A stretch of 64,000 bases of DNA, taken from contig JBNRSN020000010.1 in assembly GCA_051313645.2 (NCBI GenBank), positions 16,430,001 through 16,494,000 of the forward strand, in the 5' to 3' direction. The notes beneath the pieces were generated by a model that saw nothing but the letters and a program-made list of their open reading frames with translations, had not been told where the DNA came from and did not search any database. The position numbers and the translations under genes were made by a program. Positions within the stretch are counted from its first letter, which is position 1; each line of letters starts with the position of its first letter. Positions 18,130-48,500 of the stretch are shown in pieces. The DNA comes from Centroscyllium fabricii. Lineage: Eukaryota.

Positions 18130-21100
18130 ATATGCATTCCGTGCCGGCTGTCTCGAAGAGCAATCAATTCGGGCCCACTCCCCGCTCTTTTTCCATATCC
18201 CTGCAAATCTTTCTCCTTCAAATTGTTTGTCAATTTCCCATTTGAAAGCTACAATTGAATCGGTTTCCTCTACCCTACCAACAGTGCGTTCCAAGTCCTA
18301 ACCACATATTGCATCAACGTTTACCTTCATATCGCCTCTCGTACTTTAGACTAGTACTTTAATCTGTGCCCTCAGGTTATCGATTCATAATTCATTGGCA
18401 ACATTTTCGCTTTATTTACTCTATCTATATTTCAATCGTTCAGACTAATCTCTGTATAACATTTTCTGCTCTGAGGTGAACAATCACAGCTTCACTAACA
18501 TGACCACGTGACACTCATCCCTCGTCCCTTGAACAATTCTAGTACATTTCTTCTGTAAACTCTCCAAAGACTTCAGATCCTTCTGAAGTGTTGTGTTCAG
18601 ATTTGGACACAATATTCACGTTGATACCGATCGAGTGTTCGATACAAATTCCAAATAGGTCCCTGGCTTTTTACTCTATTTATAAAACCCAGGAACCCAT
18701 GTGCTTAAATAATTGCTTAATTAACATAAACAGATACCTTCAAATATTTGCACAAATGCGCTTAGCACACACTATTCCAGCAACCCTCCTCATTATTCCT
18801 ACTGAAATGGATCAGCTCACAATTTTCTGCGTTGAATTTCATATGCCATATGTGCACCCAGTGCACCAGACTGACTATGTCCTCCTGAAACTATTCCTAG
18901 CGTCCAACTGAAAATGTCGATATTATATCCTGTAAGCCCAAGTTCAAGCCAGTAATGTATGTATATATATATATTAGGAGTGGTCCTAGTACTGCATCCT
19001 GCTGAATAAAAATAAAAATTTCTCTCGATTCCAAAAACGAGCCATTCATCACAACTCTCTGAGTTCCATCCCTTTGCAAATGTTGTATCCATGGGGCAAC
19101 TGAAAATTATTCCACGAGTTTCAATTTTGCTATGTTATTTCTCAAAGCCTCTTTAAAGTCCATATTTACACTGTACTTCCATTTTCCACCCATTCTGACA
19201 CTTCATAACACAACTCCCTCAACAATGACCAAACAGGATTTTTCATTAACATACCATTGCAGGCTCTCCTTTATCAGTCCATGATTCTCAAAGTGGCTAG
19301 TAATCATCTCTGGGATTCCGCACCACAGACGTTAAACTGGCTTGTTTGTATTTGCCATCCTGTTCCCTTTTTTGAACAAAGAATCAACATTTACAATCGT
19401 CCTGTCCGTTGGCACAACCTCTGTAACTGGCAAGTTTGAACCATAATTGGATCAGTTGCAGGAATGAAAATGTAATGATTGACGGATGTTCTCGTGACTG
19501 GAGGTCTGTTTCCAATTGGGTTTCGCAGGCTAAATGGAAGGTCCCTTGACTTTTGTGGTGTATATCGTTGTTTTAGCATTCAAAGTAGGGATCATGATGA
19601 AGTCGTTTTATAGATGATACAAAAATAGCCGTGTGGTTGATAGTGAGGATGAAAGCTGTGGACTGCAGGAAGATATCAATGGCTGGGCAGATGGGCAAGA
19701 AAGTGGCAACTGGAATTCAATTGGTGAAGTGTGATGTAATGACTTTGGCACGGGCTAACACGCCAAGGTAATACACAATGAAATGTAGGATACTGAAGAA
19801 TGTAGAGGAAAAGTGGGCCTTTGGAGTACATGTCCACAGATCGCTGAAGGTAGCAGGACAGGCAGAAAAGTTTGGTTAATAAAGCATTATGGATACATTG
19901 ATTTATTAGCTGAACCATTACATATAAGAGCAAGAGACCTTGGAATGCATAAACATTAACTAAGCCACAGCGACAGTACGGCGTGCAGTTCAGGTCACCA
20001 TAATACATGGAAAACGTGATTGTGCTGGAGTCTGCGAGACGAGAGTTACGATTCTGTTGCCAGGAATTGATAAATTTACCTATGAGAAAAGATTGGATAG
20101 GCTGTGGTTGTCTTCTTTGGAACAGAGGAGTCTAAGGGGAGAATTGATGGAGGTGTACACAATTATGAGGAGGCTATATCAATCAGAGAGGAAAGCCTTA
20201 TTTATCCAGAAGATGGGGAAATAACAAGGGGGCATCGAGTTAATGTATTAGGTAGAAGGATTAGAGAGCAGATCAGGAGAACGCTGTTAAACTAGAGGGC
20301 AGTGTGGTTCTGGAGCTTACTACCTGAAAATGCGGTAGAGGCTGAAACACTCATTACATTTTAACAGTACTTGGATATGGACGTGAAGTGCTGTAACCTA
20401 CATGGCTACAGGGCAAAAGCTGGAAAGTGGAATCAGGCATAGTCGATCTTTTTCGACGGCACGTAATTGACTAGACAAATGGCCCCCTTCTGTGCCATAA
20501 ATCGATATGTATCTACTGAGGATTGAAAAAAAGTTGGGCAGCAATGCGGCAATTTCAACTTTACTTCCCTCAGAAAAATAGAATGGATCCCATCCAGACC
20601 GGATGACTTATCTACTTTAGCTAAACACAGTCTTTCTAGTACATCCCCGTTACCTGTTTTATCTCAGGTAGTATTCTACGTGTTTATCTTACCTTTGGCA
20701 ACGTCTTCTTCTGGGTAAACACTGATGCATAGTGCTCATTTAATACCTCAGAAATGCCTTCTGCATCTACCAATAGTTCATCATTTTTGCACAATTTGCC
20801 CTACCGCTCATGTGACAAAAAAAATATTTTAGTATGGCGACATGTGTAACGAGGTGTGGTGGAGCCCAAATGCAAAGACACTGAAAAGGCAGTCTAGGTC
20901 TTAGATACTTTTATATTACAAAACAGTAATAGAAAACATACATGCATACATTCCAAAATATATAAACATCTAAACAAGTCTTCAACAGAAAACTGGCACA
21001 AGCTTATTACAGTTGCTCATACAAAGTTAGAAACAGAAAACAAGTTCCTTTCAGAACTGGTACCAAACTTCCCAAAGTTGCGTGGAATGCTACGCAGCCA

Positions 21101-23540
21101 AGCGCATCATAGTGTAGTGAAATACATGTCCAACCCTGAATTCAGGTGGGTGCGAGCAATGTCCAGGATGTTGAATTTAGGAATACTCCCGAGTCCGCCC
21201 TACGGTCGAAACTCACTCCAACGGAGTCTTCAGAGGAAGAATCCATCTTCACAAACAAGGAAACTCCTCACATACCCAACTGAAACGTCCAAACCTCAGT
21301 TCGGGTGATAACGACCAATGTCCAGGAAGTAGATTCTGGATCTCTTCATAGTCCGCTCCACCACGGGGACTTAACCCAACGGAGTTCACAGAAAAGAGAA
21401 TACCTGATCTACTAGCAGGGGAACGCCCTTACTTAACAGATGGAATGTCCAAACCTGAGCTTCAGGTGGCAGAACGCAATGTCCAGAATGTTGACAACTG
21501 TAGTTCTCCGAAGTCCGCTCCACAGCAAGACTTACTCTACCCGAGTTTCCAGAAGAGAATACGTCATCCACAGGGCAGGGGAAGGCCCAAACCCATTGCC
21601 TCTCCAGCAGCTCAGAACAGCAACCACTCCTTCCAGTAGTTCGTAGTCAAAGAGTAGTAAGGAAATCCAATCTAATGATCCGGCACCTGCCTGGTCAAAG
21701 CACTCAGCTTATAAGCCAAACAGGCAAACCAGATCATTACTGCTAGCCAATAAGCTGCAGGTGTTGAGAACCAGAAACACGCAGGTATGTGAAACAGTTA
21801 AATAAACAGAAACAGAGAAACAAAACCTAGAATTCCAAGATGGATACCTTAAAGGGGTATGCCAACTGTGACAGAACCCCCCCCTCAAAGGACGACCGCT
21901 GACGTCCCAAGTACCCAAATACCGAAATAAGGTGGGTGCAGGGGTGCGGAGGAGGGACCAACCGTCGTCCAGGAATAAAGGACTCCAAGGAGCGCTAGAC
22001 GCTTCAGTGTCTGCTGGGCCCCTATTCTGGCCGGATCATTGTGTAACGAGGTGTGGTGGAGCCCAAATGCAAAGACACTGAAAAGGCAGTCTAGATCTTA
22101 GATACTTTTATATTACAAAACAGTAATAGAAAACATACATGCATACATTCCAAAATATATAAACATCTAAACAAGTCTTCAACAGAAAACTGGCACAAGC
22201 TTATTACAGTTGCTCATACAAAGTTAGAAACAGAAAACAAGTTCCTTTCAGAACTGGTACCAAACTTCCCAAAGTTGCGTGGAATGCTACGCAGCCAAGC
22301 GCATCATAGTGTAGTGAAATACATGTCCAACCCTGAATTCAGGTGGGAGCGAGCAAGGTCCAGGATGTTGAATTTAGGAATACTCCCGAGTCCGCCCTAC
22401 GGTCGAAACTCACTCCAACGGAGTCTTCAGAGGAAGAATCCATCTTCACAAACAAGGAAACTCCTCACATACCCAACTGAAACGTCCAAACCTCAGTTCG
22501 GGTGATAACGACCAATGTCCAGGAAGTAGATTCTGGATCTCTTCATAGTCCGCTCCACCGCGGGGACTTAACCCAACGGAGTTCACAGAAAAGAGAATAC
22601 CTGATCTACTAGCAGGGGAACGCCCTTACTTAACAGATGGAATGTCCAAACCTGAGCTTCAGGTGGCAGAACGCAATGTCCAGAATGTTGACAACTGTAG
22701 TTCTCCGAAGTCTGCTCCACAGCAAGACTTACTCTACCCGAGTTTCCAGAAGAGAATACGTCATCCACAGGGCAGGGGAAGGCCCAAACCCATTGCCTCT
22801 CCAGCAGCTCAGAACAGCAACCACTCCTTCCAGTAGTTCGTAGTCAAAGAGTAGTAAGGAAATCCAATCTAATGATCCGGCACCTGCCTGGTCAAAGCAC
22901 TCAGCTTATAAGCCAAACAGGCAAACCAGATCATTACTGCTAGCCAATAAGCTGCAGGTGTTGAGAACCAGAAACACACAGGTATGTGAAACAGTTAAAT
23001 AAACAGAAACAGAGAAACAAAACCTAGAATTCCAAGATGGATACCTTAAAGGGGTATGCCAACTGTGACAACATGAAACATTTGGTTTCCCTTTCTATGT
23101 TAGGCGTCAATTATTTTCGCACTGTCACTTTCCCTCTATTATTTCATGTTTCAATTCATCTCTTTGCTATTTCATATTCAACCTGATTCTCGCTTGTATT
23201 ATGAAGGTTCATCCTAGTCTAAACCCTTCGTAAACCAGGGAGCTGTAGCTTAGGTCACCCTCCCTTTCTCCCTTCTGGGAATCCACCTAGACTGTACCCG
23301 AAACATCTCTCTTTTAAAGTCCCTCCATTGTTCCAACATATTCCTGCCAGCCATACATTGACTCCAGTTTACCCGGGACACATTCCTCCTCAATTAACTG
23401 AAAATATCCCTCCTCCAGTGAAGTTTGTTTTTATTTTGTGTTGTTCTTCTCAATAGCTAATCTATACATTTTGATACTATGGTGACTATTCCCGAGATTC
23501 TACCCAACTGTGATATTCTCCACTTGACTCACTTCAATTG
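18130..23540. mobile_element. Mixed-orientation CR1 fragments (minus 18130-19460, plus 19470-20515, minus 20520-20844 and 23071-23540)
   Basis: Degenerate CR1 ORF2 and 3' UTR motifs; the last fragment is split by LTR element A. Confidence 0.7.
20845..23070 (-). mobile_element. Non-autonomous LTR retrotransposon, family A (Tf1/sushi-like Ty3/Gypsy derivative): LTRs 20845-21873 and 22042-23070 (1029 bp), internal 168 bp
   Basis: TG...CA LTR ends; 5-bp TSD ACATG on both sides; PPT GAGGGGGGGG next to the 3' LTR; PBS at 22030-22040; about 6 differences seen between LTRs; no coding capacity. Confidence 0.93.
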
Positions 23541-23719
23541 CCGAAGTGAAATGCAGCGGCAGCTGCCGACACAGCCCATTTCTCTGAAATACACTGAGAT
23601 TATCGAAAATCTGAATTCAGGCGGTGAGAAACTAACTTCCAATTTCAACAGCCCTGGCAGAAAAAACGGTAACAAAAATAAAGTATTGTATATATATATA
23701 TAGCACCGTTCTCCACCAC

Positions 23720-24432
23720 CGGACGTTTACATCCAATAAATGTTTATTTTTCAAGTATAGTCAAGTAGGAAAGGCAGCAGCAAATATGCAAACAGCAAAC
23801 ACCCACACGAAGCATCGTGATAATGACCAAATAAACAGTTTTCAGTGATTTTTTTGAGAGATCAATGTTGGCCAGGCCACCGAGTTTATTTCCCCTGCTC
23901 TTCTTCGAAATAGCGCCCAGGCATATTTTCAATACATTTAGAGGACCCTTGGGCTAATGTCTCAATATAATAGTGTTTCCATTTGTGGGGAATATCATAA
24001 CTGGAGGACATCAATATAAGGTGGTCACAAAAAAAATCACATAGGTAATTCAGGAATAAACGTCGTTACACAGAGAGTGGTGAGAATGTTGAACTCTCTA
24101 CCAAAGCGAGTGGTTGATGCCAGTAGTATAGATGGTTTTAAGGTGAGGCTGAACAAGGGAATGAGGAACAATGGAATTGAGACTTGTGCTGAAAAAATTA
24201 GTTCATCAAAGACTGGAGGGAATTCAAGTGGAGCATAAATGATGCATGGCCTGTTTCTGTTTCGCATATCCTTCGTAGCATATTTATCATCTGAAATACA
24301 CCACCTCCGACAGTGCAGCATTTCCCTGGAGTGGCAGCCAAGTTATGTTGTGCTCAAGGCTCTGGAGTGGTATTTTAACCGATAACCTTCTAATTCAGAG
24401 GCGAGAGTGCTATCAGCTGAGCTACGGCTGAC
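23720..24432 (-). mobile_element. SacSINE1-like DeuSINE interrupted by a CR1 3' fragment (~23975-24280); related tail at ~17900-18062 (+)
   Basis: Minus 5' end gtcagccgtagctcagctgatagcactctcgcctctg and Deu-like tgctgcactgtcggaggtg; family identity recalled from memory. Confidence 0.6.
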
Positions 24433-25389
24433 ATTAAAGGGGGGAAGAGTGAATTCAAAGCCCTGATATTTTTCTTCAATCCAAGCCCGAAAGGTATATA
24501 AATTAATCGTCACCGTTTATACAGAATATGTTTGGGATTTATTTATATATATACATAATTAATAACTCAGAGTCTCGCAATATCATAAGATAAGGCAACA
24601 CGGACAACTGATTCTAGTGCTTGATCAAAGTTCAGCCAAATTTCTCGGGTATGGTAATGTCTTACTTATTTTACTGGACTACTGTCTTTTAGCAATAATC
24701 CAGAGTACGCGAGCTGAAATCGCACCATATCAGCTTGAGAATTTAAATTCGGTTTCTGAAAATTCGAGAAATAAAAAGCTGACATCAGTAAAACGAATCA
24801 TGAAACAATCGGAATGTGTTACAAGCACAATTGTTTCACGGGTGTCCTTTAGAGAAGGACAACTGCATTACTTACCGCGTCTGGGCATCTGTGTGACTGC
24901 AGTCCCAAAACAACGTAACGGCCCCTCTGAAGTTGCCTGGTGAGCCTATCAGCTGTATCTAGGATAACTAGGGATGGGCATTAAATGCCGTTATTGCCAG
25001 CGATGCCCACATGCCTAGAATGAATACAAATAATTGAGCAGATTAATATGTTAATATGGTAATTGGTTTCCTAAGACAATGAACACGATTATATATTATC
25101 GTTCGGAGATTATGTTCAGATAATTGTCTCATCAGTGATTATTGAAAATCTACTGTACAATGTTAGCGACTATTCCTTCACTTCAAACGTTGAGTCTTCC
25201 GATAAAATAACTATCAGTACAGACAAAAGAAGCGTCTCTACACTGATATAACCAAGTTTAATATTCAGACTCATATTACACGTCAGCGTTCCTCCATTCT
25301 TTCCTTCAAATACCAGCTGTTTTTCACGGAACTGAACTGACGAAAACAGCTGCAGAGAAGATAAAATGTTTGGACTGTTGCTTTGAGAA

Positions 25390-25561
25390 GCTAGTGAGTG
25401 AACAGGGCCCAACTCCTCCCCCCACCCCGTCCCCACCGCCCCAGCTAACCGATCATATCAGTCACACCCCGCAGTGTTAATCAAGTGTCCAGTCAGAAAG
25501 GCTCGTGAGCTCCGAACGAGGAGGCAGCGTCCCAATCGATGACAGATACTCACGGGTAAGT
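25390..25561 (+). promoter_or_regulatory. Putative MS4A promoter and non-coding exon 1 (donor cacgg|gtaagt after 25555)
   Basis: C-rich GC/CACCC-box tract ~25412-25443, consensus donor, and an aligned donor-like caccg|gtacgt in the inverted paralogue near 9145. Confidence 0.55.
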
Positions 25562-27425
25562 TAAGGCGTCTTCATATTGACCATGTAATTCATTTTACCA
25601 GAGACATGGATTATGATGTGATCAATGGGGGACATTTAAATGTTGGGCGATGGTGTGAAATGGGCGTTGTGAAATTAGCCGCCCGTTACAAGCCTGCCAG
25701 ATATCCCTTTCCATTGAGATTAATTGAATGGAAAACCTGGCGGAGGGGGGGGGCGGGGGTTATCGCCCATTCTATTCTGCCCCTCAATGTAAAAATTGCC
25801 CCAACGTTTATCGAATAGTGAATTTTTTTCTACATAAATATTAAGGTATGTTATGCGATTGATAGATAACTTCAGTCCGAAATTATCGATTGTGATCCTA
25901 CCCACAAATGTAATCCAACCATTATATTCACTGTCACACGAACACACAATGTGTGCTCAGGAAATAGAAGATTAAAGAACAGATGCTCGGTCAAACCTTC
26001 CCTCACCACGATGGCTGGGGCGCCATGCACGTCCCCAACTCACACCCCGCAGCCATGTAATCTCCTGGGAGTGGCAAAACAACCAGAGTAAAAAGCTCTT
26101 CACAAATAAGGAAAAGGTAAGCTGGAATAAAACCCTGCGCCCCACTCAGACGATCAATAACAGTTCATGAGATCAGATGTAAAAATACCATTTTAAGTGA
26201 TAAGAATATCCTGCTGTACTGATTGTGGATTGAAATTCCGAGCTGTGGTTGTAAACATCACGACCGCTTATATAATCATCATAGAATAGTACAGCACAGA
26301 CGAAGGCCATTCGGCCTTCGAGTCTGTGCAGCACCCGGAATTTATGGATGAGATCTTTATTTACAGAGCGTAGGTATCAGGTTTCAAACCTGGTATTTTT
26401 GCTCAGATTTGTTTATGCAATTGGCTTGTTTCCAAGTAAAACACCGACAGGACCCCGCTTGACTGACTGGCCCGGCTTTTTGCGTTGTAACTCCTATGTA
26501 ATATATGTATCTATCTGCTTCTTGCAGCAATGTTGTTTGTAACGAAATAACTAAATAACAATGCCTTTTTGCGGTCATGTAGTTTTTTGAAATTAGGAGA
26601 ATGACGCTATTTGCTCTGAAATCTGCCTCTCCACGACAAACACAATGAACATGTCCCGTAAGAATATGTGTGCATACTGATTATTCAAATTGCGTTTACC
26701 ACAATGTAGACGTAAACGTACCGGTTAACATTCAGCTGAAATCAGACTCTCATTTTAACATTGATGTAATTACATCACTAATTAGTTGAATATTAGTGTA
26801 ACCGCATACATTAATCACACATGGTATGATGTGCTTTATTATTATAAAAATAAAGTGCGGTTTGAACTTAAATGAGGAGATGTTCGCCAGGCTGTCTCGA
26901 AATAATTGCCTAGGTTTGAATGGAAATTGGTTTTGTTTGGAAATTATAGCGAAACACACGATAAATGTCGATGCTTGCGATTTCAGGTCAAATATCAGTC
27001 AGAATAAAGGGCTTCACCAACGCAGAAAAAATATGGCGATCGATTTGGCCCCAATACATTGCCCCGACTAGAAGTCCAATCGGGGTAGAAAGTTTCCCTC
27101 AGAACTTTAATTTTTCGGGTTTTTTTAAGTGAATTATTAAAGTCCACAGCTTATAATTCATGAAAACGAGCGTTCGTCAAGATTCAAATGTAATACCCTT
27201 ATGAACATGACATGAAGGTGTCATTTTGATGGGTTCAATCGAATTTTTAGAAAATAATTGGAGATTCGGTGACAGGAAGGTTAAATGTCACACATTAGCT
27301 TTGCCAGATTTTAACATTACAACTAGCATTCTTTGGTCATTATTAATTCAAATGTTGGCATCCTAATGGCAGTGGAACCACCTTCTTATTCACGAAGAGT
27401 CGATTGTCCAGTCATTATTTGGATC

Positions 27426-27590
27426 ATGGCAACTTCACTGAGCATGGAAGAAATCCTCGTCAGTCCCAATATTAACCCACAATCCGGTACGAGGGAAGCC
27501 TTGGAGAGACGGACAGGATCACTGACTCCTTCACCAAACAGAAGCGTGAACAATCCAGGAATACAGATGGGAAAACCGAAAGTTCTGGGT
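27426..27590 (+). CDS. MS4A: MS4A first coding exon (cytoplasmic N-terminus, 55 aa)
   Basis: Acceptor ttgtccag|27412, strong Kozak context (gatcATGG) at 27426, ends ...GKPKVLG|gtaaga. Confidence 0.88.
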
Positions 27591-30500
27591 GTAAGATGAA
27601 AGCATGTATTTTATTCATTTTTTTCCGTCCCAAGTAGATGACAATTTCAACATGCAATATTTTGCTTTCAGGACACCTTGAGTAAAATGGTGTTCAGTCG
27701 CTATGTCTAGGGAAATCATCAATTAGCTGATGGAGGTTAGTTCCCGCAAGACACTTCGCGAAATTATAAACAACTTCAGTGTGATCACATGTACAATTTC
27801 GCTGGGACTAACAACTGGAATTATGTCCCTTAGTATCATTATGGGCTATTATTTTATAAATTATTTCTGTGGATATGGGTCTCGTTAGCAATTTCAACAT
27901 TTACTTCTCAGACAATTTCCACTTGAGAAAATCGTAGTGCCCCTTCTGGTTGAGCAGCTGCAAAATATGATATGAAGGTACTCCCACAGTGCTGTCAGCC
28001 GAGTAGCTCAAAGTTTATAATCCAATGACAATGAAGGAACGGCGGATGCATGTCAACGTCGGGATTGTGTGTGTGTTTGAGGGGAATTAATGATATGCCC
28101 AGGGTCTGCTGCCCTTGTCATTTTAGATGTGAAGTTTGCGGTCTTGTGCGATGAAGTTTTAGAATTCTAAGCGATTTGCTGCAGTGCATTCTGTAGTTAG
28201 TGCACACTGTAGCCACGATGCGCCGGTTCTGGAGTGAGTGATTATTTACTGTGGTCCACAAACATATAGCTTTTGGAGAATTTCCTCCAGAGCCATTGTC
28301 ATAACAAAAGATTGCTTGTCTGGCGACAAAAAAATCAGCTCATGAGACACCCTCGAGCTTTTTAAAATAATAACAAGCTTTATTACATTGAACTATAACA
28401 ACATTACAATTTAAATACAGTTTCATAGTAAATGACAGAATGAGATGTAAATTATAAAAACTGGTTCCCCAGACGAGTGATCACTTTCGGCGCTAGACCT
28501 ATTGCATGTCCGCTGGCTCGCAACTGACCCTGACCCTTCGAACTGACGCTGAAAATCTCCCACCCGAGATAACCACACAGCCCGTGTTCCCCAGGCGAGG
28601 AGCGAACAGTCCCATCCCTGCATGCCATCCGCACGGATGCGTGCATCCTGACCAACCAGAGAAAGTTCTGCCTTCGTGGCAAACAGTGTATATTCTTAAA
28701 CCATAATACAGACTTGGTCTCTGTCTACGTAATCCATATTTGCACATTTTGCCGTGGCCAACTTTTCAGGTGATTACCCCGCTTTATGAGCTAAACATTC
28801 GACTCGAGCAGTGACGCAAAACGGGCGATATCAGGTGGGGGGCTGGTGTTCATAGCGCCTGAAATTCAGCTCCATTGCAATTAATGGGACTGAACATAAC
28901 TGCGGATAACTTGGCCGCCGATCCGATACCTCACATTTCTATCATGCCCGCAATGAATTTCAAGGCACTTTTTCGAAGCTTGCCTGTTTACAAATTGTCT
29001 TTAAAACGCAGTAAGTAGATACATGTTTATATTTTACTGTGGTATAGGGTGTCATGGCCTGTAAGAACATAACAACAGAACAAATAGAAGCCCGAAAATG
29101 CCCGTCGGCTTTTCGAGCCTGCTCCGCCATTAAATGAGATTAAGGCTGATCTCCTGCCTCAACTCAATCACCGGCCCCATCGCCATATCGCTTGCTGCTC
29201 TTACAAGTCCGAAATCTATCTACTTCTGCTTTTAATATACACAATGTATGAACCTGCATAGCTTCATTGATTTACCATCCTCGGCATGAAAAACATTCTT
29301 CTCATCTCAGTCCTAATTGCCCTACCCTTTATTTTGAGGCTGTGGCCCATGGTTCTAGACTCCCCAGAAAAGGGATACTTTCTCCCAGCATCTAAAATAT
29401 CAAGTCCTGTATTAACTGTATATTCTTCAATTAGTTCCCCTCTCATTCTTCTGAATTCAAGAGAGTAAATGCCTACTTCATTCAATCTCTTCCAATATGA
29501 GAGTCCCGCCATCCCAGGAATCAATCTCCTGAAAGTTCGTTGCACTATCTCTATGGCAAGTATATCCTTCCTTAGGTAAGGAGACCAAAATTGTTCACAA
29601 TACTCCTGGTGTCGTCTCAAAAAGGCACTATATACATGGAGTAAGACATGTTTTCTCCTGTACTCAAATCCTCTTGTAATAAAGCCCAGCCGACCATTTA
29701 CCTTCGTAATGGCTTGCTGTACTTGCACGTTCAATTTCAGTGACTCATATACAACTACACCCAGGTCCCTTTAGCACCTGCATTCCCCAATGTTTCATCA
29801 TTTAGCAAGTGCTCTGCCTTTCTATTTGTTCTACGAAAGTGGATAACTTCACATTTGTCCACCTTTTATTCCATCTGTTACTTTCTCGCCCAGTCCCTAA
29901 GCAAGTGGAGATCCACCTGAAGCCTCTTCACATCCTTTTTAAAATGACACTGCTAAATATATTCGTATTGTCAGCAAATTTGGAAATGTAACATTTCGTC
30001 CACTCTTCCCAATGATTCAATAGATTGTGTATATCTGGGTCCCAAGCACGGATCCTTGCGGTACCGTACGAGTCACAGCTTACGATGCTGAAAATGACCC
30101 GTTTAGCCCTGTCACAGGGTGCCTTTCCCTTTAAGGATTCAAGACAGATAGGTTGTGTGCAGCACACCTGTTTTGAAGACTTGTTCCCCTGTTATTCAAC
30201 TATTATATCAATTAACGGTTTCACATGCCTGTGTGTTCCTGGTTCTCATTGCCTGCTGCTTATTGGCTAACACTAAATAATCTGGTTTGCCTGTTTGGGC
30301 TTATAAGCTTGATGCTTTGTCCAGGCAGGGGCGGGATCATTGATTGGATTGACTTACTACTAACTACTGGAAGAAGTGGTTGCTGTTCTGAGCTGCTGGA
30401 GAGGCAATGGGTTTGGGCTTTCCCCTGCCCTGTGGATGACGTATTCTCTTTGGGAAACTCGGTTAGAGTGAGACTAGCTGTGGAGCGGACTTCTGAGAAC

Positions 30501-33500
30501 TACAGTTGTCAACATTCTGGACATTGCATTCTGCCACCTGAAGCTCAGGTTTGGACATTCCATCTGTTAAGTAAGGGCGTTCCCCTGCTAGTAGATCAGG
30601 TATTCTCTTCCTCAGAAGACTCCGTTGGAGTGAGTCTCGACCGTAGGGCGGACTCGGAAGAGGTCCAGAATCTACTCCTTGGACATTGGTCGTTATTACC
30701 CGAACTGAGGTTTGGACGTTTCAGTAGGGTATGTGAGGAGTCTCAATGTTTGAGGATGGATTCTTTCCTTCTGAAGACTCTGAAGAGATGGGTTCCAGCT
30801 TTAGGGCGGACTCTGGGAGAGTTCCATTACTCATCCAAGACATTGCTCGCACCCACCTTGATTCAGGGTTGGACATATATTCCACTATACTATAATGCAC
30901 TTGGCTGCGTAGCATTCCACGCAACTATGGGAAGTTTGTACCAGTTCTGAAAGGAACTTGTTTTCTGTTTCTATCTTTGTATGTAGCAACTGTAATAAGC
31001 TAGTGCCAGTTTTCTGTCGAAGACTTGTTTAGATGTTTAATATATTTTGGTATGTATGGATGCAATTTATTAGGGTTTTTGTGATTTATAGTTCATTAAA
31101 GGAGTTTAGCTCTAGAAAGCCGTTTCAGTGTCTTTGCATTTGGGCCCACACCCCACCGTTACAAGCCCTATACTTTGCTTTTTGTCTGCTAACTGATTCT
31201 CAATCGATGCAAGCCTATTACACCCCATTACACGTGCCCTCATTTTATTCACCATCCTCTTGTGTGGGAACTTATCGAAGGCCGTCTGAACATCCAGTTA
31301 AACCACATCTATCAGTTCCGCTTTGTCTACACTAGTAGTTGCATCCTCAATAACTCCAATACATTTAACAAACATGATTGTCCTTTCATAAATCCATGTT
31401 GCCTCTGCCTAATCGTAAAATGAATTTCTAAGTCCCCAGTTATTCCATTATTTGTAATAGATTCCAGCATTTTCCCAAATACTGATGTGAGGCAAACAGG
31501 TCTGTTGTTCCTCGTTTTCTCTCACCCTTGATTCTTAAATTGCGGGGTTACTGCACAATTTGTTTGTCACAGTTTGGCATAAGAATCAAACAAATAGGCT
31601 GACTCAAACGTGGCTAACAAGGGAAATTAAGGATAGCATAAGATCCAAGGAGAGGGCATATAAATTGGCCAGAAAAAACGGTAACCCTGAGGATTGGGAG
31701 CAGTTTAGCATTCAACAAAAGTAGGACAAATGTAATAATTAAGAAGGGGAAAAATGGAATATTCAGATAAGATTTCAGTGAACATAAAAACTGACTGTAA
31801 AAGGTTTTATAGTTATGTGAAGAGAAAAAGATTAGTGAAACCATGTGTAGGTCCCTTGCAGTCAGAAGCGTGGGGAGTTACAATGGGGCACAAAGAAATG
31901 GTAGATCAATTCAATGCATATTTTGATTCTGTCTTCCTAAAGGAGAACACAAAAACCTCCCAGCGATGTTGGAGAGCATACTGTCTGATGAAAGGGAGGA
32001 ACTAAAATAACTCAGCATTTGTAGGGAAATGTTGTTAGGGAAACTGACGGTTTTTAAGTCCGATTAATCACTACTGCCTGATACTCTATATGTAACGGTC
32101 GAGGTGCGGGGTCCAAATGCAGTGACACTGAGAGAATGGTCTAGATCCTAAAACCCTTTAATATACAAAACATGTTACAAAAAGACATACATATCAAAAC
32201 ACTAGTCTTTGCTAAAGACAGGCACAAGCTTCATACAGATATTTAACCCCTCGAGACACTCAGTAAAGAGAATCTTAAATACAGAAAGGGCCTAATAAGA
32301 TGTGGTAATGAAAAGTCCAAATGATGAAGGCAGATGATGCAACAATGTCCTGACCTCTGGAACACTCCTCCTAGAGTATCCCTATCAATGGTCTTTAGGT
32401 GGTCATCCTCAGAACTACCAGAACTCAACCAAGAGCAAACCGGATATCCAAAAGGCCTCATTGCTGCTGGAATGAAGTATGATTGTAACAATGTCCTGAC
32501 CTCTGGAACACTCAACCAAGAGCATCCCTATCTATGGTCTTTGGGTGGTCATCCTCAGAACCTTCTGAACACCCACTCAAGAGCATCCAGGAAATAAAGA
32601 GGGCCTCATTGTCCCTAAGGTGAATATGTGATTGTAACAATGTCCCGACCTCTGGAACACTCCTCCTAGAGTATCCCTATCTATGGTCTTTGGGTGATAA
32701 TCCTCAGGTTTTCAGAACTCAAACAAGAGCAAACCGGATCTCCAAAGGGCCACATTGCCACTGGAAAGAAGTAAGCAAAGTCCATGAAGTAATGTTGAAA
32801 GTCCAAACCTGAAACAGGCAATGAAGCACAGTGTCCAGAATTTAGGGTATAGAAATCTTCCAAAGTCCCCTGTTCAACAGGGACCCATCTCTTCCAGAGT
32901 CTCCCGAAGAAGAAATCCAACCCCACAGCTCACTGCCTTCCACGGAGACTAGAAACACCTCCTGTGTCCTAGTCCTGCAAAGTGTTACTTGCTCCCATAC
33001 TTGAGTGTAGAGCTCTTGTTAAGGATCCAGCAACCTTCTGGTGAAAACCTCCAGCTTATAAACCAAAACTGGCAAGCAGACAATTTAGGTTAACCAACCA
33101 GCTGCAGGCACTGACAACTTAACACACACAGAAATGAGAACAAGCAATTGAGGCAATTAAACAATACCAAGTAACAAAACCAGAAACCAAAGATGGCTAC
33201 CTTAAAGGGGTATACACCTTAAAAAGGTATGCCAACTGTGACAGAACCCCCCCCTTAAAGGACGACTGCTGACGTCCAAAAGTACCCAAATACCAAAAAA
33301 TTAAGGTGGGTGGAGGGGTACGGAAAAGGAACCAACCGTCCTCCAAGTATAAAAAGAATAAAAGGAGAGCTAGACGCTTCAGTGTCAGCTGGACCCCTAA
33401 TCTGGCTGGATCCTTCTGTAACGGTCGAGGTGCGGGGTCCAAATGCAGTGACACTGAGAGAATGGTCTAGATCCTAAAACCCTTTAATATACAAAACATG

Positions 33501-36500
33501 TTACAAAAAGACATACATATCAAAACACTAGTCTTTGCTAAAGACAGGCACAAGCTTCATACAGATATTTAACCCCTCGAGACACTCAGTAAAGAGAATC
33601 TTAAATACAGAAAGGGCCTAATAAGATGTGGTAATGAAAAGTCCAAATGATGAAGGCAGATGATGCAACAATGTCCTGACCTCTGGAACACTCCTCCTAG
33701 AGTATCCCTATCAATGGTCTTTAGGTGGTCATCCTCAGAACTACCAGAACTCAACCAAGAGCAAACCGGATATCCAAAAGGCCTCATTGCTGCTGGAATG
33801 AAGTATGATTGTAACAATGTCCTGACCTCTGGAACACTCAACCAAGAGCATCCCTATCTATGGTCTTTGGGTGGTCATCCTCAGAACCTTCTGAACACCC
33901 ACTCAAGAGCATCCAGGAAATAAAGAGGGCCTCATTGTCCCTAAGGTGAATATGTGATTGTAACAATGTCCCGACCTCTGGAACACTCCTCCTAGAGTAT
34001 CCCTATCTATGGTCTTTGGGTGATAATCCTCAGGTTTTCAGAACTCAAACAAGAGCAAACCGGATCTCCAAAGGGCCACATTGCCACTGGAAAGAAGTAA
34101 GCAAAGTCCATGAAGTAATGTTGAAAGTCCAAACCTGAAACAGGCAATGAAGCACAGTGTCCAGAATTTAGGGTATAGAAATCTTCCAAAGTCCCCTGTT
34201 CAACAGGGACCCATCTCTTCCAGAGTCTCCCGAAGAAGAAATCCAACCCCACAGCTCACTGCCTTCCACGGAGACTAGAAACACCTCCTGTGTCCTAGTC
34301 CTGCAAAGTGTTACTTGCTCCCATACTTGAGTGTAGAGCTCTTGTTAAGGATCCAGCAACCTTCTGGTGAAAACCTCCAGCTTATAAACCAAAACTGGCA
34401 AGCAGACAATTTAGGTTAACCAACCAGCTGCAGGCACTGACAACTTAACACACACAGAAATGAGAACAAGCAATTGAGGCAATTAAACAATACCAAGTAA
34501 CAAAACCAGAAACCAAAGATGGCTACCTTAAAGGGGTATACACCTTAAAAAGGTATGCCAACTGTGACACTATATCCTAGTATACTTAAGGAAGTGGCTC
34601 TAGAAATATTAGATGGATTACTGATCATCTTTCAGAAGTCGCTTAAATCTGAAACTGTGCCAATGATTGGAGGGTAGCTAATGTTACCCAGGTATTCAAA
34701 AATGGTGGTAGAGAGAAAACAGGGAATTACAGACCAGCAAGACTGACATTATTGTGGGGAAAATGCTAGAGTCCATTATAAAGGATGTAGTAGCTGTGCA
34801 CTTGGAAATCAGTGACAGTGTCGGACAAAGTCAACATGGATTTACTAAAGGTAAATCATGATTGACTAATCTATCGGATTTTGTTGAGGCTGTAACTGGG
34901 AAAATACATAAGGGTGAACCAGTACATTTGGTGTATTTGGACTTTCAAAAGGCTTTCTTAATATCCAGCATAAGAGATTAGCGTGTAAATGTATGGCACA
35001 TTGAATTGGGGGCAAGGTAACGACTTGGATAGAAAACTGGTTGGCGGACAGAAAGCAGAGTGTAAGAAATAACGGGTGTTTTTCCGAGTGGAAGGCAGTG
35101 ATTAATGGGGTACCGCAGGGATCTGTCCTTGTACCACAGCTACTCACAATATACATTAATGAACTAGAGAAGGATACTAGATGTGATATATCCAAAGCTT
35201 GCGGACGACACAAAGCTGGGTGGGCGTGTGTGCTGCGAGGAGGATACCGAGAAGCTCCAGGATGATTTGGACAGGGTGTGTGATTGGGCAGAATCCTGGT
35301 GAATGCAATACAACGTGGATAAATGCGATTATCCACTTAATGTCAAAAACAGAAAGACAGACTATTACCTGAATGGAAATAGATTGGGAGACGGGCAGAT
35401 GAAACGAGACCTGGGCGCTCTTGTGCACCAGTCGTTGAAGGTAAGCATGCAGGTGCAGCCGGCAGGGAAGAAGGCGAATGGTATGTTGGCCCTCATTGCG
35501 AAAGGGATTGAGTACATGAACCAAGATGTCTTGCTGCAGTTTTACAGGGCCTTGGTGAGACCACACCTTGAGTATTGTGTGCAGTTTTGTTCGTCTTATC
35601 TGAGGAAGGATCTTCTTGCCATGGAAGGAATTCAGCGAAGGTTCACAAGGCTGATACCTGGAATGGCAGGAATAACGTGTGATGCGCATTTTTGATCGAT
35701 TAGACTTATACCCGCTGGAGTTCAGAAGAATGAGAGGGGATCTCATCTAAACTCATAAAATTCTGACTGGTCTGGTCAAACTAGAAGCAGGAAGAATGTT
35801 CCCGATTGTCGCAGAGTCCAGAAGCAGGGGCACAGTCCAAGGATAAGGGGTAGGCCAGTCAGGACGGATATGAGGAATAATTGATTCACCGAGAGAGTGG
35901 TGAACCTGCGAAATTCTCCACCACAGATTGTAGTTGAGGCCAAGCCATTAATTTTATTGAAGAAGAAGATAGGTATAATTTGAAGATCGTAAGGTATCAA
36001 GGGATATCGGAAGAAGGCAGGAACTTTGTACTGAGTTTTGACGATCAGCCATGATTTTATCGAATGGTGGAGCAGGCTTGGGGGCCGAACGGACCGCTCC
36101 TGTTCCTATCTTCTATATTTCTCTGTTTCTATGTTATATTGTCTATCGTTACAATATACAGGAACCTTTCCCGAATCTATAGAATTTAGCAAGATGCAAC
36201 CAATGCGTTCACGATTCCAAAGGCCACCTCTTTCACTACCCTAGGATGTAAGTCATCCTGTCCTAGGGATTTGTCGACTTTTAGTCCAATTAATTTTCCT
36301 AGTGCTGTTTTTTTACTAATAAAATATTCTTTACGTTCCTCATTCTCGGCACATCCTTGGCTTTCTCATATTTCTGTCAGGATGTTTATGTCTTCCTCCG
36401 TGAAGGCAAGATCAGAATATGTTTTCAATATCACAGCCATTTCTTCATTTCCCATTTAAAACTATCGCGATTCAGACTGCAAACGGCATAGTTTTACCTA

Positions 36501-42500: not shown

Positions 42501-45500
42501 TATCGAGGCTGCACCGACACATATCACACCTTATCCCCGTAACCCCACATATTCAATCCCCTGAACACTAACGGTCAATTCATCATTGCCAATCCACCTA
42601 ACCCGCACATCGTTGGACAAAGATTGAAGGTGATTGGCAAAAAAAACAGCGGGTGGATGAGGAGAATTCGTGTTTTACACAGCGACCTGTTACGTTCTGG
42701 AATGTATTGGCCGAACTTGTGGTGTAAACTGATTCGTTAATTACTTTCATATAAAAAGGGAATTGGATAATTACTTGAAAGGGAAAAAATTGTGGAGCTA
42801 CGAAAAGAGAGGCAGTGTGTCTAATTGGATATTTCCTTCAAGGTGCAAGCACAGGCACCGTAGTGAGAATGGCCTCCTTCACTGATGTTTCATTCTATGA
42901 TTCTATGAATTGGTACTGCGGAAATAAAATCAATCACTGCCCTGTCCTTATTTTCTAAGTACCCAACCGGATACAACGTTTCAGATGATACTGTCACGTT
43001 TGTAACGAGCGGACGTTATGCGATTATTTCACCAGTCGCCCTGTGGCGGCGCTGCAGCTCCTGTGTTTTTGGGCTGCTCCCACCTCAGCCTGGAGTGCAG
43101 AGAAGCTTCTTTGAGATGTTGTTCTATAGTTCCAACATTGCGATCAGTTGTGTTTTCTATAGGGACAGCTTAGACTTGGAAACGGGGCTGAATAATACTT
43201 CCAACCCCTGGTCCATTAATTCCCTCCTCCACACTGAAATGTGCTTTCAGCTGAAGACGTATTATTTATGCCGTGTGGTAGATCGCCTAACATTGAGACA
43301 ATGGGGGTGACATTAGTCTGCGTTACGCTCCACCCTATTTTCGTTTCCATTGAATACAATTGGAGAGGAAAATCGGGAGAAGCGCAAAACGAACTTCCGA
43401 TGCCCGTTCAGCATTTTCTGGCAGAGTTCAAATCCATTGCCAATATCCTTCAATTGCCAAAAATTGACTTAGTATAACCTTCCATCTGAGATTGCCCTAA
43501 AATGTGATGTCGCTCTGTATGTGACTGTTCTTGCAGCCTCACGTGGACTTATTTCTAATTGCCCTGAACATGTTCTTGCTGCTGATCCACAGATGTACCG
43601 TTCCACTCCGCTACGCGTTCTCCTACTGCTGGCAATGTTGGCGCTGTGGACATCAATTCTCGGTTCCATTTTCGAAGGCAAGAAGTTGTGGAAACATTCC
43701 AAAATACAAGTCAATAAGGTTTGTACTTACAATACCAAATTGCAAATCAATATTTCTGGCTCCGCTGCATATTGACTCTAAAAATACCGAGTTTTGCATT
43801 TAACTCCCAAAAGTTTTCCAATTAGGAGTATTACGCCAGCTATGGGCCCTGACTTCCTGTGCTCCAGAAGAGCTGCACCCCCATGAAGTGGGGTCAGAAA
43901 TGCCTCGTGTCGGTGCAGCTCGGGTGATTACCAGAAACGTGAACTTCCTGTGCTGATGGGCAAGGGGCTTCAGCTTCCTACCCAGGAAGACTTTGAGCTG
44001 CAGACTTCCTGTAGGCAGCTGCTCAAAATGCGGGTGTATCACGTGGGGAAGTCTCTCTTTTGCTGCACATATAAAAAGGAGTCTTAAGAGGCTGCAGGCA
44101 GCTTTGAGAAGTGAAAAAAACACGTTTAAAGTTAAAAGAAAAATTGATTCCTTTGGAGATATTTGTCTGTGGTCTTACAGCTTGTAAATGTGAATGTTTT
44201 TATATATTTTGGTGAAAGTGAAAAAAATCGGGAATTTGAACGCGATGTCAGCTCTCAGCGGCTGACATCGCGTTCAAATCCCCGATTTTTTTCACTATCA
44301 CCAAAATATATAAAAACCTTCACATTTACAAGCTGTAAGACCACAGACAAAGATCTCCAAAGGAATTTTTAAAAAAAACTTTAAACGTGTTTTTTTCACT
44401 GGAGCAAAAAAAAACCCTATCAGCAGAAAAGGCAGAAACTTTAAAAAAACAGCTTCCTAGAAACTGTAAAAAAAACAAACATAAGGTGCTTCCTACCTGA
44501 TATTCTTCATCCTGCTGGCCGATACTGTGTTTCGTTCGGGGGTAAAGCCGACCTCAGTGGGCGTGGCTTGCACCCCGGACCAAAAAAAATACTTCCCCTC
44601 CAAACGAAAAAAAAACGGGATTTCCCACAGGAAGTTCACGTGAGAAAAAAATAATCACGTGCGCGTGCGCCGCGGGTGCACGTCAGCACGCACCCGCAGC
44701 AATCGGGCCACAGGAAGACAGGGCCCATTAACTTTATCCAGCGGAGGAAACGCGCCTGCCATGCGTTAGACTAGTTTCTATTTGTTCCTGGCATGTGGGC
44801 GTCCCTGGCAAGGCCAGCATATATTGCCCATTCCTTGTTGCCCTTGATAAGGTGCTGGTGAGCCTTCTTATTGAACCGCTGCAATCCGTGTGGTGAGCGT
44901 ACTTCTATCATGCAGTTAGGGAGTGTTTTCCAGGATTCTCACCCAGCGAACGGTGATGGAACTGCAATATTCTGCCAAATCAGCATATTATTTGACTTGG
45001 ATGGAAACGTGGAGGTGGAAGTGGTGGCGTTCCCATGTGCCTGCTGCCCTTGTCCTTCTATGTGGTACAGGTCGCTGGCTTGGTAGATGCTGCCGAAGAA
45101 ACCTTGCCGAGGAGCGCTGGTCGTGGAGGGAGTGAATGATTAATGTGGTGGTTGTGTGCAAATCAGGTGGGCTGCATTGTCCTCAATGGTGTCGATCTTC
45201 TTGAGTGTTCTCGGAGCTGCAGCCATCCAGGAAAGTGGGGAGTATTCCAGCAAACATCTTACCTGTGCCTTGTAGTGAGTGGAAAGGATTTGAGGAGTCC
45301 AGAGGTGAGACAGTCGCCGCAGAATACACAGCCTCTGAAGTCCAACTGTGCCCACGCCATTTAAATGTTTGGTCCATTTAAGTTTCTTGCTAATTGTGAC
45401 ACCCAGCATGTTGATGGTGGGGGATTCGGCGATATTAATGATGTTGAGCATCAAGGGACGATGGTTAGACTATCGCTTGTTTCAGATCGCCATTGACTGG

Positions 45501-48500
45501 TGATTGTGTAGCGAAAGTATTCGTTGCCACTTATCAGAACAAGCCTAGATGTCGGCCAGGTCGTGTTGCATGCGGACACGGTTTGAATCTGTGTCTGAAG
45601 AGTTGTGAATGCAACTCAACACCGTGCAATAGTCAGCGAACTTCCTCATTGCTTACTGTATGAGGAGGATTGGTGATTGATGAACCCGCTGGGGATGGTT
45701 GGACCTACGACACATGTATGAGGTTCTCCTGAATCGATTTCATGAGGCAGGGATGTTTGCCCTCAAACAACCACAACAATCTTCCTTTGTGTTAGATATG
45801 AATCCAGCAAGTGCAGATTTCGCACCTGATTGCCATTGATTTTAATTATATTTGCACTCCTTGTTGCCGCACTCGTTCAATTGCAGCATTGGTGTCAAGG
45901 GCAGTCAATCTCACCTCACCGCCGGAATTCAGTAATTTCGGCCATATTTGGAACAAGGCTGTAATGTGGTCTGGAGGCGAGTGGTCCTGGCACAGCGCAA
46001 ATTTAATATTGGTGAGCTGGTTATTGGTTTGAAAATGCCAATAGATTACACTGTTTAAGACTGCATCCATTAATTTGCTGATGATTGTGAGCAGATTTAT
46101 GCGGCTGTAATATGTCGGATTGGATCTGTCCTGCTTTTTGTATACATCAAGTACCTGGGCAATTTTCCTCATTGTCGGATAGATGCCAGTGTTGTAGCTG
46201 TACTGGCACTACCTGGTGAGAGGCGCGGCAATTCTGGATTCCTAGGCTTCAACACCACAGCAGGAGAGATTTCGGGACATACAGCCTTTCCAGTGACCCG
46301 TGGGCTGTGTCCTTTTTGATATCACGTTGAGTGAATTGAATTGACTGAAGACAGTCTTCTGTGATCGTGGACGATATGAATCATCCGCTTTGCACATCTG
46401 GCTGAAGATGTTTGCACACTTCAGCCTTGTATTTTACACTCGTGTGTGAGGCTCCGCCATGTTTGAGGATGGGGAGTTTCATTCACATTCTACGACATTT
46501 TTTACTTGAAGTTGCAGGAACAGAGCTAAAGGATGCAGCGCCCTCTACAGGCCATCTGGGACCTGTGTGAACAGAAAAATCAACCATGTATTCCGTTCAC
46601 CAACCACAGGGAAGAACTGATTTCTGAACACCGCAGATTCTAAAACAAGAACTGCGTGTTCGACTAGTGTGCGAAACATCAAATCAGTATTGAAAGCTAA
46701 TTGAAAGAAACATTGTATTCAGAGATAGATAGAATAGCGACAGCTTAGAAATAGGAAAGGGGCGGTAACGTTAGTGGGAGTCTTTTATAGACCACCAAAT
46801 AGTAACAGGGAGGTGGAGGAGGAAATTGCACGACAAATAAAGGAAAGATGTGGGGGACATAGGGTAGTTATCATGGGAGATTTCAATTTCCCTAATATAG
46901 ACTGGAATCTAGGAAGGTCAAAGAGTGCAGATGGAGAGATTTTCTTACAATGCGTGCAGGAAGGTTTCCTGACACAATACGTGGAGGAACCAACAAGGGG
47001 GGGGCAACGTTGGACCTGGTTCTGGGAAATGAACCAGGCCAAGTGGTAGAACTGGGGGTAAGGGAGCACTTTGGGGACAGTGACCACAACTCGGTGACAT
47101 TCACAATAGTAATGGAGAAGGATAGGAGCATGAGGCAGGGTAAGGTATACAGCTGGGGGAGGGGAAATTATGACAGGGTTAGGCATGAGTTAGCTAACAC
47201 CAATTGGGAACGGGAACTTGCTGGGAGAGGAACGGAAGAAAAATGGAGAGTGTTCAGGGAGCAAATTATGAAAGCCCTGGATAAGCATGTCCCGAGTAGG
47301 ATGGGAAACAAGAGAAAGATGAGAGAACCGTGGATCACGAAAGAGGTAGAACAGTTAGTAAAGAAGAAGAAGGAGGCATATGATAGAATGAGAAACCAGA
47401 GTACAGCAGGGGCAGGAAGGGAGTACAAAGAAGCAAGGAAAAAACTGAAGAATGGGCTAAGGAAGGCAAAGGGAGGGCATGAGAAGGCATTAGCGGGAAG
47501 GATAAAGGAGAACCCTAAGGCTTTCTATGCTTACGTAAGAAATAAAAGGATGACTAAGATAAGTGTAGGGCCGATCAAAGACGCGGGAGAAATGTGCACG
47601 GAGTCAGAGGAAATTGGGGAAGCACTAAATGAATATTTTGCGTCCGTGTTCACAAGGGAGAGGGAACTAAACGTAGAGGAGGAGTTCAAGATACAAGGGG
47701 AAAGGGTGGGGGAAGTAAATATTCAGAGGGGGGAGGTATTAGATATTCTGGAGAAACTGAAGGTAGACAAATCTCTTGGGCCAGACGGGATATATCCAAG
47801 GATTCTCTGGGAAGCGAGGAACGAAATCGCAGAGCCACTGACCTCTATCTTTAGTTCCTCGCTATCCTCGGGGATAGTCCCTGAGGACTGGAGAGAGGCG
47901 AATGTGGTTCCCATATTTAAAAAGGGGAGCAGGGACGTGCCAGGGAACTACAGACCAGTCAGCCTTACCTCGGTGGTCGGAAAGGTGATGGAAAGGGTCC
48001 TGAGGGATAGGATCTACGACCATCTAGAAAGGGGCAAATTAATCAGGAGCAGTCAGCACGGATTCGTTAAGGGCAAATCGTGCCTGACCAACCTGATAGA
48101 ATTCTTTGAAGAGGTGACCAAGTGTGTGGACGAGGGAAAGGCGGTTGATGTGATATATATGGACTTCAGCAAGGTGTTCGACAAGGTCCCGCACGGTCGA
48201 CTCATGAAGAAAGTAAGGAGTTGCGGGGTAAACAATGAAGTGGTGGGATGGATTGAGAACTGGCTGGCTCAGAGGTAGGAGAGGGTAGTGGTAGAGGGCC
48301 AATACTCGGTTGGAGACCGGTCACCAGTGGGGTACCACAGGGGTCGGTGTTGGGGCCACTGCTACTTGTAATCTTTATCAATGACTTGGAGGAGGGGACT
48401 GAGGGGTGGGTCAGCAAATTTGCGGATGACACAAAGATTGGGGGGTAGTGGATGAGGAGGAAGGAAGTAGAAAGATTCAGAGGGATATAGATAGGATGCA

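Follow-up and report, generated by a model that had tools for sequence, protein, structure and literature searches.

Elements A and B: two non-coding LTR retrotransposons with a predicted self-priming site and sushi-type internal ends

Two LTR retrotransposons, A and B, lie in the window, that is, the whole 64,000-nt stretch of DNA analysed here. According to our analysis, they are very probably protein-less, helper-dependent and self-priming derivatives of sushi-type elements, in which a short internal cassette has been kept mostly as a paired RNA signal. Both are non-coding and young, having been inserted recently, and each is a TRIM-like internal deletion derivative with full-size LTRs. The conservation of the cassette would thus be due to the pairing of most of its bases in the RNA, and not to coding.

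Structure of elements A, B and C

The features of the elements are given below. The subdivisions of the LTR of A were placed from the TATA box and the poly(A)-like hexamer and are therefore predictions from the sequence.

20845..23070, minus strand: element A, a complete non-coding LTR retrotransposon of 2226 bp with TG...CA ends
20840..20844 (left copy) and 23071-23075 (right copy): target site duplication (TSD) of A, ACATG
22042..23070, minus strand: 5' LTR of A, with U3 of ~189 nt, predicted R of ~790 nt and predicted U5 of ~50 nt
22905..22910, minus strand: TATA box (TATAAG) of A, with the predicted start 29 nt on; the spacing is identical in B and C
22871..22881, minus strand: predicted self-primer of A, the first 11 nt of the RNA, exactly complementary to the PBS
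22325..22803, minus strand: three diverged tandem units of ~160 nt within R of A, the portion that differs between A and B
22107..22114, minus strand: poly(A)-like hexamer of A, ~72 nt before the LTR end
22058..22094, minus strand: U5 arm of the U5:leader stem of A
22030..22040, minus strand: PBS of A, internal nt 2-12, of the self-priming type and without TGG
21994..22023, minus strand: leader arm of the stem of A, an ATG-less gag-start remnant reading GPADTEA
21909..21993, minus strand: pyrimidine-rich spacer of A, with a weak hairpin, 78% identical between A and B
21890..21907, minus strand: pre-PPT hairpin GGACG...CGTCC of A, which is the C-terminal tail of pol (frame GTSAVVL-stop-GGGSVT)
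21877..21886, minus strand: polypurine tract (PPT) of A, 3 nt ahead of the 3' LTR
20845..21873, minus strand: 3' LTR of A
32091..34569, minus strand: element B, 2479 bp, both LTRs 1153 bp and 100% identical
32086-32090 and 34570-34574: TSD of B, CTATA
33244..33416, minus strand: internal region of B, with the PBS at 33405-33415
34347..34357, minus strand: predicted self-primer of B, 29 nt after TATAAG (34386)
30110..31163, plus strand: solo LTR C of a subfamily related to A, 1054 bp, with TSD AGCCC

The two LTRs of A (1029 bp each) differ by 6 mismatches, three of them at CpG, and are 99.4% identical. The working poly(A)-like hexamer of A would be the copy in the 3' LTR, at 20910-20917. In A, B and C, as well as in the relatives L005 and L014 described below, such a hexamer precedes the LTR end by 69-77 nt; a poly(A) signal shifted towards the 3' end is known from Sushi LTRs (PMC3601003). 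From this position near the LTR end we infer a long R in A and B.

Within R, three tandem units are present in B as well (~147 nt, 33660-34105); they are weakly related to those of A, with GGACATTG-like motifs in common. Close to the LTR start, a palindrome-like motif, CCCTTTAAGG, is found in A, B and C (23046-23058 in A; 34518-34557 in B), and B has a 17-nt duplication of it within the latter interval. The solo LTR C retains an intact 5-bp TSD and is 86% identical to A in the R body and 71% in U3, the first ~85 nt of which are unlike A. The combination of an A-like R body with a divergent U3 start suggests that U3 may have been exchanged in C. The predicted self-primer of C differs from that of A at one site, so a matching change in the PBS is predicted for the family of C.

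The elements are surrounded by other repeats. The flanks of A (~20500-20844, 23071-23500) and of B (~31800-32090, 34570-34800) look, by eye, like decayed CR1-type LINEs. In the window as a whole, which is animal DNA, decayed fragments of non-LTR reverse transcriptases are abundant, with RVT_1 matches in two of the six frames tested; a long fragment of LINE ORF2 that shows little decay, and has an RVT_1 match, lies at 46896-49224 (plus strand). Judging by the appearance of the CR1-type repeats, the host may be a cartilaginous fish. A near-perfect, MITE-like palindrome at 44147-44366 has 106-nt arms, 96% complementary, around an 8-nt spacer, with weaker symmetry outward. A dispersed family of 90-280 nt repeats (D1-D3; 13100, 29063, 38445, 42363, 53858, 59207, 59960, 61078) probably represents LINE tails or SINEs.

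Self-priming site and U5:leader stem

Internal nt 2-12 are exactly complementary (11 of 11 pairs in each element) to a stretch of the LTR, which is nt 190-200 in A and nt 213-223 in B. In both cases this complement is located 29 nt past TATAAG, where transcription is predicted to start, and is the longest match between internal region and LTR. An unanchored match of at least 11 nt appeared in 1.5% and 2.0% of 2000 shuffles for the two elements; because the anchoring is common to A and B, the chance of the match is far below these figures, and that of an anchored match is ~4^-11 per element. Between A and B, the PBS and the primer have both changed at pairs 3 and 9 with the pairing kept, that is, in a compensatory manner. 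Given the lack of TGG and the exact, anchored complement in the LTR, we regard the PBS, as far as its sequence can tell, as a self-priming site and not a tRNA site. Folding of the whole transcript gave a probability of 0 for the primer:PBS pairs, which cross the U5:leader stem and so belong to the pseudoknots that the program excludes.

Self-priming has been demonstrated for the yeast element Tf1; in its vertebrate relatives it has, to our knowledge, been inferred only. Priming of Tf1 uses the first 11 bases after RNase H cleavage, according to PMC7175516, and self-priming is presented as a feature common to the Tf1/sushi group in PMC10085805, PMC6317226 and PMC4600332.

Coding relatives were provided by a metagenome scan with 25 matches, of which 23 were judged from their context to be chance matches and two, L005 and L014, are LTR elements of fish type. 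L014 (1-1425) encodes a gag that is intact, 318 aa long and equipped with a zinc knuckle (Pfam PF03732, PF19259), its relatives being bony-fish gag-pol proteins with a chromodomain. It has in common with A and B the layout, a self-primer (10 nt) and the U5:leader stem; the stem is weaker, with 40 of 1000 shuffles matching it and a window other than U5 as the best partner of the leader. L005 (230-480) is decayed and has the U5:leader stem (1 of 1000 shuffles); no self-primer was found in its LTR, which is incomplete in the contig. Both are host-derived ends of fish sushi-type retrotransposons in metagenome contigs. In viral contigs, two DNA patterns gave 0 matches and P0013 gave none; a lone, distant chromovirus-like locus of a viral contig (L026, 32%) was not used as a relative.

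In A and in B alike, the leader and U5 form a duplex of -41.5 kcal/mol, a value reached by 0 of 1000 shuffles. The U5 partner of the leader is the best of 98 LTR windows in A and of 111 in B, and the stem leaves the PBS in a weakly paired loop of ~35 nt. The earlier note had taken the segment after the PBS for an ATG-less gag start of sushi type, and this identification is borne out by the gag relatives, among which MDPA is the commonest start (28 of the best 150; MD[PS]A in 37 and MDPAD in 12), and by L014, the ATG of which aligns with the AGG found in the internal regions of A and B. Across A, B, L005 and L014, the only four sequences in this comparison, pairs 4, 5 and 8 of the inner stem change on both sides. 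Pair 8 involves the T of the start codon; it is A:T in L005, is unpaired in L014 and has become C:G in both A and B. The stem was thus retained when the start codon disappeared. The gag-start segment has probably been kept because it pairs with U5. None of the 296 proteins examined was a gag with [PS]A[DE]T[DE] among the first 60 residues, so no close partner was seen among those proteins.

Tf1 needs three duplexes, as stated in PMC10085805, and two of these three "pretzel" duplexes were found in A and B. For the third, the best candidates were no better than shuffles, of which 55 of 60 (A) and 57 of 60 (B) were as good; this test may be insensitive, because the coding element L014 was also at shuffle level (51 of 60).

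Conservation of the cassette and alternative explanations

The internal regions of A (21874-22041, 168 nt) and B (33244-33416, 173 nt) can be aligned over their whole length, with identity at 145 of 173 columns and with 5 gap columns; the score of 202 compares with a shuffle mean of -119 (maximum -77 in 1000 shuffles). One 18-mer from the cassette is present at exactly two places in the window, against an expected 0.01. The earlier note was thus right that the two regions align almost throughout, and its order of parts was recovered as well: PBS, a GGCCCAGCAGACACTGAA segment, a pyrimidine-rich spacer, a hairpin and the G-run PPT. Its further statement that the cassette is conserved far more than the LTRs holds against the R body only, where the identity of A and B is 54% (z 4.6; shuffles reach 52%) versus 84% for the internal region (86% of ungapped columns); it fails against U3, with 68% (80% of ungapped columns), and against the last 60 nt of the LTR, with 74% (87%). 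The pairing partners that the PBS and the segment behind it have in the LTR were not mentioned in the note. Nor can the ~170 nt alone be the minimal set of cis-signals that had been proposed, because the priming signals are divided between the internal region and the LTR. The ratio of LTR to internal region is indeed about 6:1 (1029:168 in A and 1153:173 in B), and it would most simply be explained by deletion within an element that had ordinary LTRs of ~1 kb. The non-autonomous behaviour suggested earlier agrees with the presence of two diverged families that both have TSDs and near-identical LTRs and whose internal regions are colinear.

The hairpin GGACG-TCAGC(G/A)GT-CGTCC is conserved in A and B directly before the G-run PPT, as had been observed, and in both elements one frame runs through it to the same pol-like end and continues into the LTR. 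Tails of pol with GT[SA]x[AD]V were found in 13 of 120 cases, and five tails are exactly colinear with the last codons of A and the LTR start. If the hairpin is to form, base 1 of codon 2 should pair with base 2 of codon 6. Residue pairs consistent with the hairpin were present in 60 of 75 tails, against 24.5 expected, and in 30 of 41 unique heptamers, against 11.7 expected, which 0 of 10000 permutations equalled, in a protein-level test that ignored relatedness, took serine as TCN and included the 75 of 120 tails that passed the motif filter. The result nonetheless indicates the same hairpin in coding fish elements. Its energy is modest (-8 to -9 kcal/mol), and its role is most likely PPT definition or protein binding.

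As to a possible origin of the spacer from a decayed chromodomain, comparison with 13 sequences was equalled by 17 of 300 shuffles in A and 265 of 300 in B; repeated after the fact with 112 sequences, the figures were 6 of 400 and 173 of 400. The seven stop-free frames over the internal regions gave no Pfam match except one with E 0.43. By elimination, either the spacer or the stems or the LTR would contain a putative packaging signal.

Parts of the stretch were present in 11 of the 13 sequencing runs listed (5 studies), and the family and its relatives occurred in runs with four organism labels. One run with the stretch bears the label fish gut metagenome. No RNA run was among those listed, which has no bearing on expression. 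Contigs matching the internal region and 5' LTR of A numbered 1688 in run X1, 1071 in X7, 25 in X10 and 10 in X11; runs X1-X4 may be the window's own source, and read depth does not equal copy number and was not used as such. Contigs of X1, X10 and X11 span the LTR-internal junctions. Within the internal region there were no joints among the 7 listed and no indels among 12 of 32. The contigs of X10 and X11 have the hairpin-PPT or the PBS-leader parts in common with A and then run into different LTR ends, which points to further families. One very deep contig of X11 (on 21866-21910) has only the hairpin and PPT in common, with another spacer and LTR, and may represent a distinct, abundant family in another organism. 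Among 24 of 246 loose ends, none led from the leader into a gag, a result with no bearing on the existence of a partner.

Several other explanations of these observations have to be considered. It is rather unlikely, in our opinion, that A and B, while of the same origin as we propose, owe the likeness of their internal regions to short divergence or to recent exchange by template switching between co-packaged RNAs, the spacer being functionless. Such exchange is in line with the identity per ungapped column, which in the internal region (86%) is close to that of the U5 end (87%) and of U3 (80%), with the reads, which have the letter of B at 4 of the 7 internal variant sites listed, and with the mosaic divergence described for Tf1/Tf2 and Tosmo in PMC10085805. 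However, the compensated changes in the PBS and the stem require selection on pairing, and the families of X10 and X11 retain the hairpin-PPT or PBS-leader parts despite other LTR ends. Exchange is therefore compatible with the paired-signal explanation for the spacer only.

That A and B arose by one-off deletions of autonomous elements after insertion, with no mobile non-coding family, is very improbable: only two full copies lie in the window, but they have identical deletion breakpoints in spite of unlike R bodies, their LTRs are 99.4% and 100% identical with intact TSDs, and the numerous contigs of X1 and X7 (1688 and 1071) cover the internal region with no listed joint inside. We give similarly little credence to a tRNA-primed TRIM or non-autonomous endogenous retrovirus with an incidental match between PBS and LTR. 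The vertebrate TRIM Helenus does use tRNA 3' ends (PMC10886601); in A and B, however, the PBS is without TGG, its LTR complement is exact, anchored and compensated in both elements, and both internal ends match the ends of sushi gag and pol. Least probable of all is an assembly artefact in which collapsed solo LTRs were joined through a short spacer, an idea to which the 100% identity of the LTRs of B lends something, but which is contradicted by TSDs flanking whole elements, by the 6 differences between the LTRs of A and by independent contigs crossing the junctions of A.

Proposed replication and comparison with known systems

Under the preferred explanation, that of helper-dependent, self-priming derivatives, Pol II would initiate 29 nt after TATAAG, the position being observed and the start predicted. 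The gag-start remnant and U5 would then form the long stem and expose the PBS in its ~35-nt loop; pairing and compensation are evident in the sequence, and the fold is presumed to form in vivo. Annealing of RNA nt 1-11 to the PBS, to which they are complementary, would produce a pseudoknotted circle. RNase H of a helper element may cut after nt 11, as in Tf1, and the fragment released would prime minus-strand DNA. In keeping with the standard model, strong-stop DNA would jump via the long R, and the plus strand would begin at the PPT beside the conserved hairpin. Integrase of the putative helper, which would also supply Gag and Pol, could insert the DNA with the 5-bp TSDs that are observed.

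It is possible, and we offer it tentatively, that these elements amount to a natural deletion map of the cis signals of a vertebrate chromovirus: a non-coding lineage across several species, reduced to the self-primer, the U5:leader stem, a short packaging spacer and the pre-PPT hairpin. The hairpin would be general in fish sushi elements and determine how Pol ends, in the same way as the MDPA start of Gag is determined by the U5 stem, and self-priming would operate across a ~900-nt loop without the third duplex of Tf1. Non-coding families mark the few internal bases that a vertebrate chromovirus RNA needs, and, since they are free of protein constraint, compensated changes in them are cleaner evidence of selection on the priming structure. 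Our results also suggest why fish elements resemble one another where gag begins and where pol ends, since RNA stems overlap both. For annotation, it is relevant that such elements, having neither coding matches nor a tRNA PBS, would be mis-filed as paired solo LTRs. In the open-access literature searched, neither the pre-PPT hairpin nor a non-coding vertebrate element that combines long LTRs with self-priming was found to be described. Overall, this is known biology in a variant form, with TRIM-like function and Tf1-like priming, and involves no new mechanism.

LARDs are non-coding plant elements with long LTRs and a conserved, structured internal region of several kb. A and B resemble them in being non-coding, with long LTRs and a conserved, structured interior, but this interior is 168 or 173 nt long, and the elements are of vertebrate sushi type. 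Retrozymes (PMC4918200) are likewise non-autonomous LTR elements with structured RNA. No Rfam family, including hammerhead and other ribozymes, reached its gathering score in the elements within 20700-34700, and outside them there was one chance-level snoRNA match; a ribozyme or small-RNA gene in the LTR was considered and none was found, the R repeat units folding near background (z -0.6 to -2.1 overall, and -0.6 to -1.2 for those of A).

With TRIMs (Helenus LTR-11_DR and LTR1_LCh, biv-TRIM, Cassandra), A and B have in common the non-coding structure of two LTRs around a short interior with PBS and PPT, the TSD and the occurrence of solo LTRs. The internal region is made up of both ends of an autonomous element, a composition also reported for LTR-1_PTrit and Copia-9_PGr in PMC10886601, which further describes the known vertebrate TRIMs as tRNA-primed. 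TRIMs measure less than 1000 bp in total, with terminal repeats of 100-250 bp (PMC10886601 and PMC6934838), whereas A and B reach 2226 and 2479 bp, with LTRs of 1029 and 1153 bp. They further differ from TRIMs in carrying a TATA promoter and a PBS that appears to be self-priming, lacking TGG, in place of a tRNA complement. The TRIMp3 trait of Cassandra, Helenus and Ajax was not recognised, as the LTRs of A and B contained no tRNA- or 5S-derived segment at a level of decay short of heavy.

The closest resemblance in priming is to the Tf1/sushi group of Ty3/gypsy chromoviruses (Tf1, Tf2, Tj1, Tosmo, sushi-ichi; V-clade of GyDB). It comprises an 11-nt PBS complementary to the predicted 5' end of the RNA, a duplex between the region downstream of the PBS and the 5' LTR, a poly(A) signal close to the LTR's 3' end, and the terminal sequences, TGTCACA...CGTTACA in A and B against TGTYANR...CNTNACA in the motif table of PMC3601003. 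With the fish sushi relatives they also have in common the MDPA gag start and a pol tail with a G-run PPT. In contrast to the group, A and B have ~840-940 nt from primer to PBS, and the third pretzel duplex of Tf1 is represented in them by candidates at shuffle level. They are also without gag, pol and chromodomain and have lost the ATG, which makes them a non-coding derivative of the Tf1/sushi group and not a coding member.
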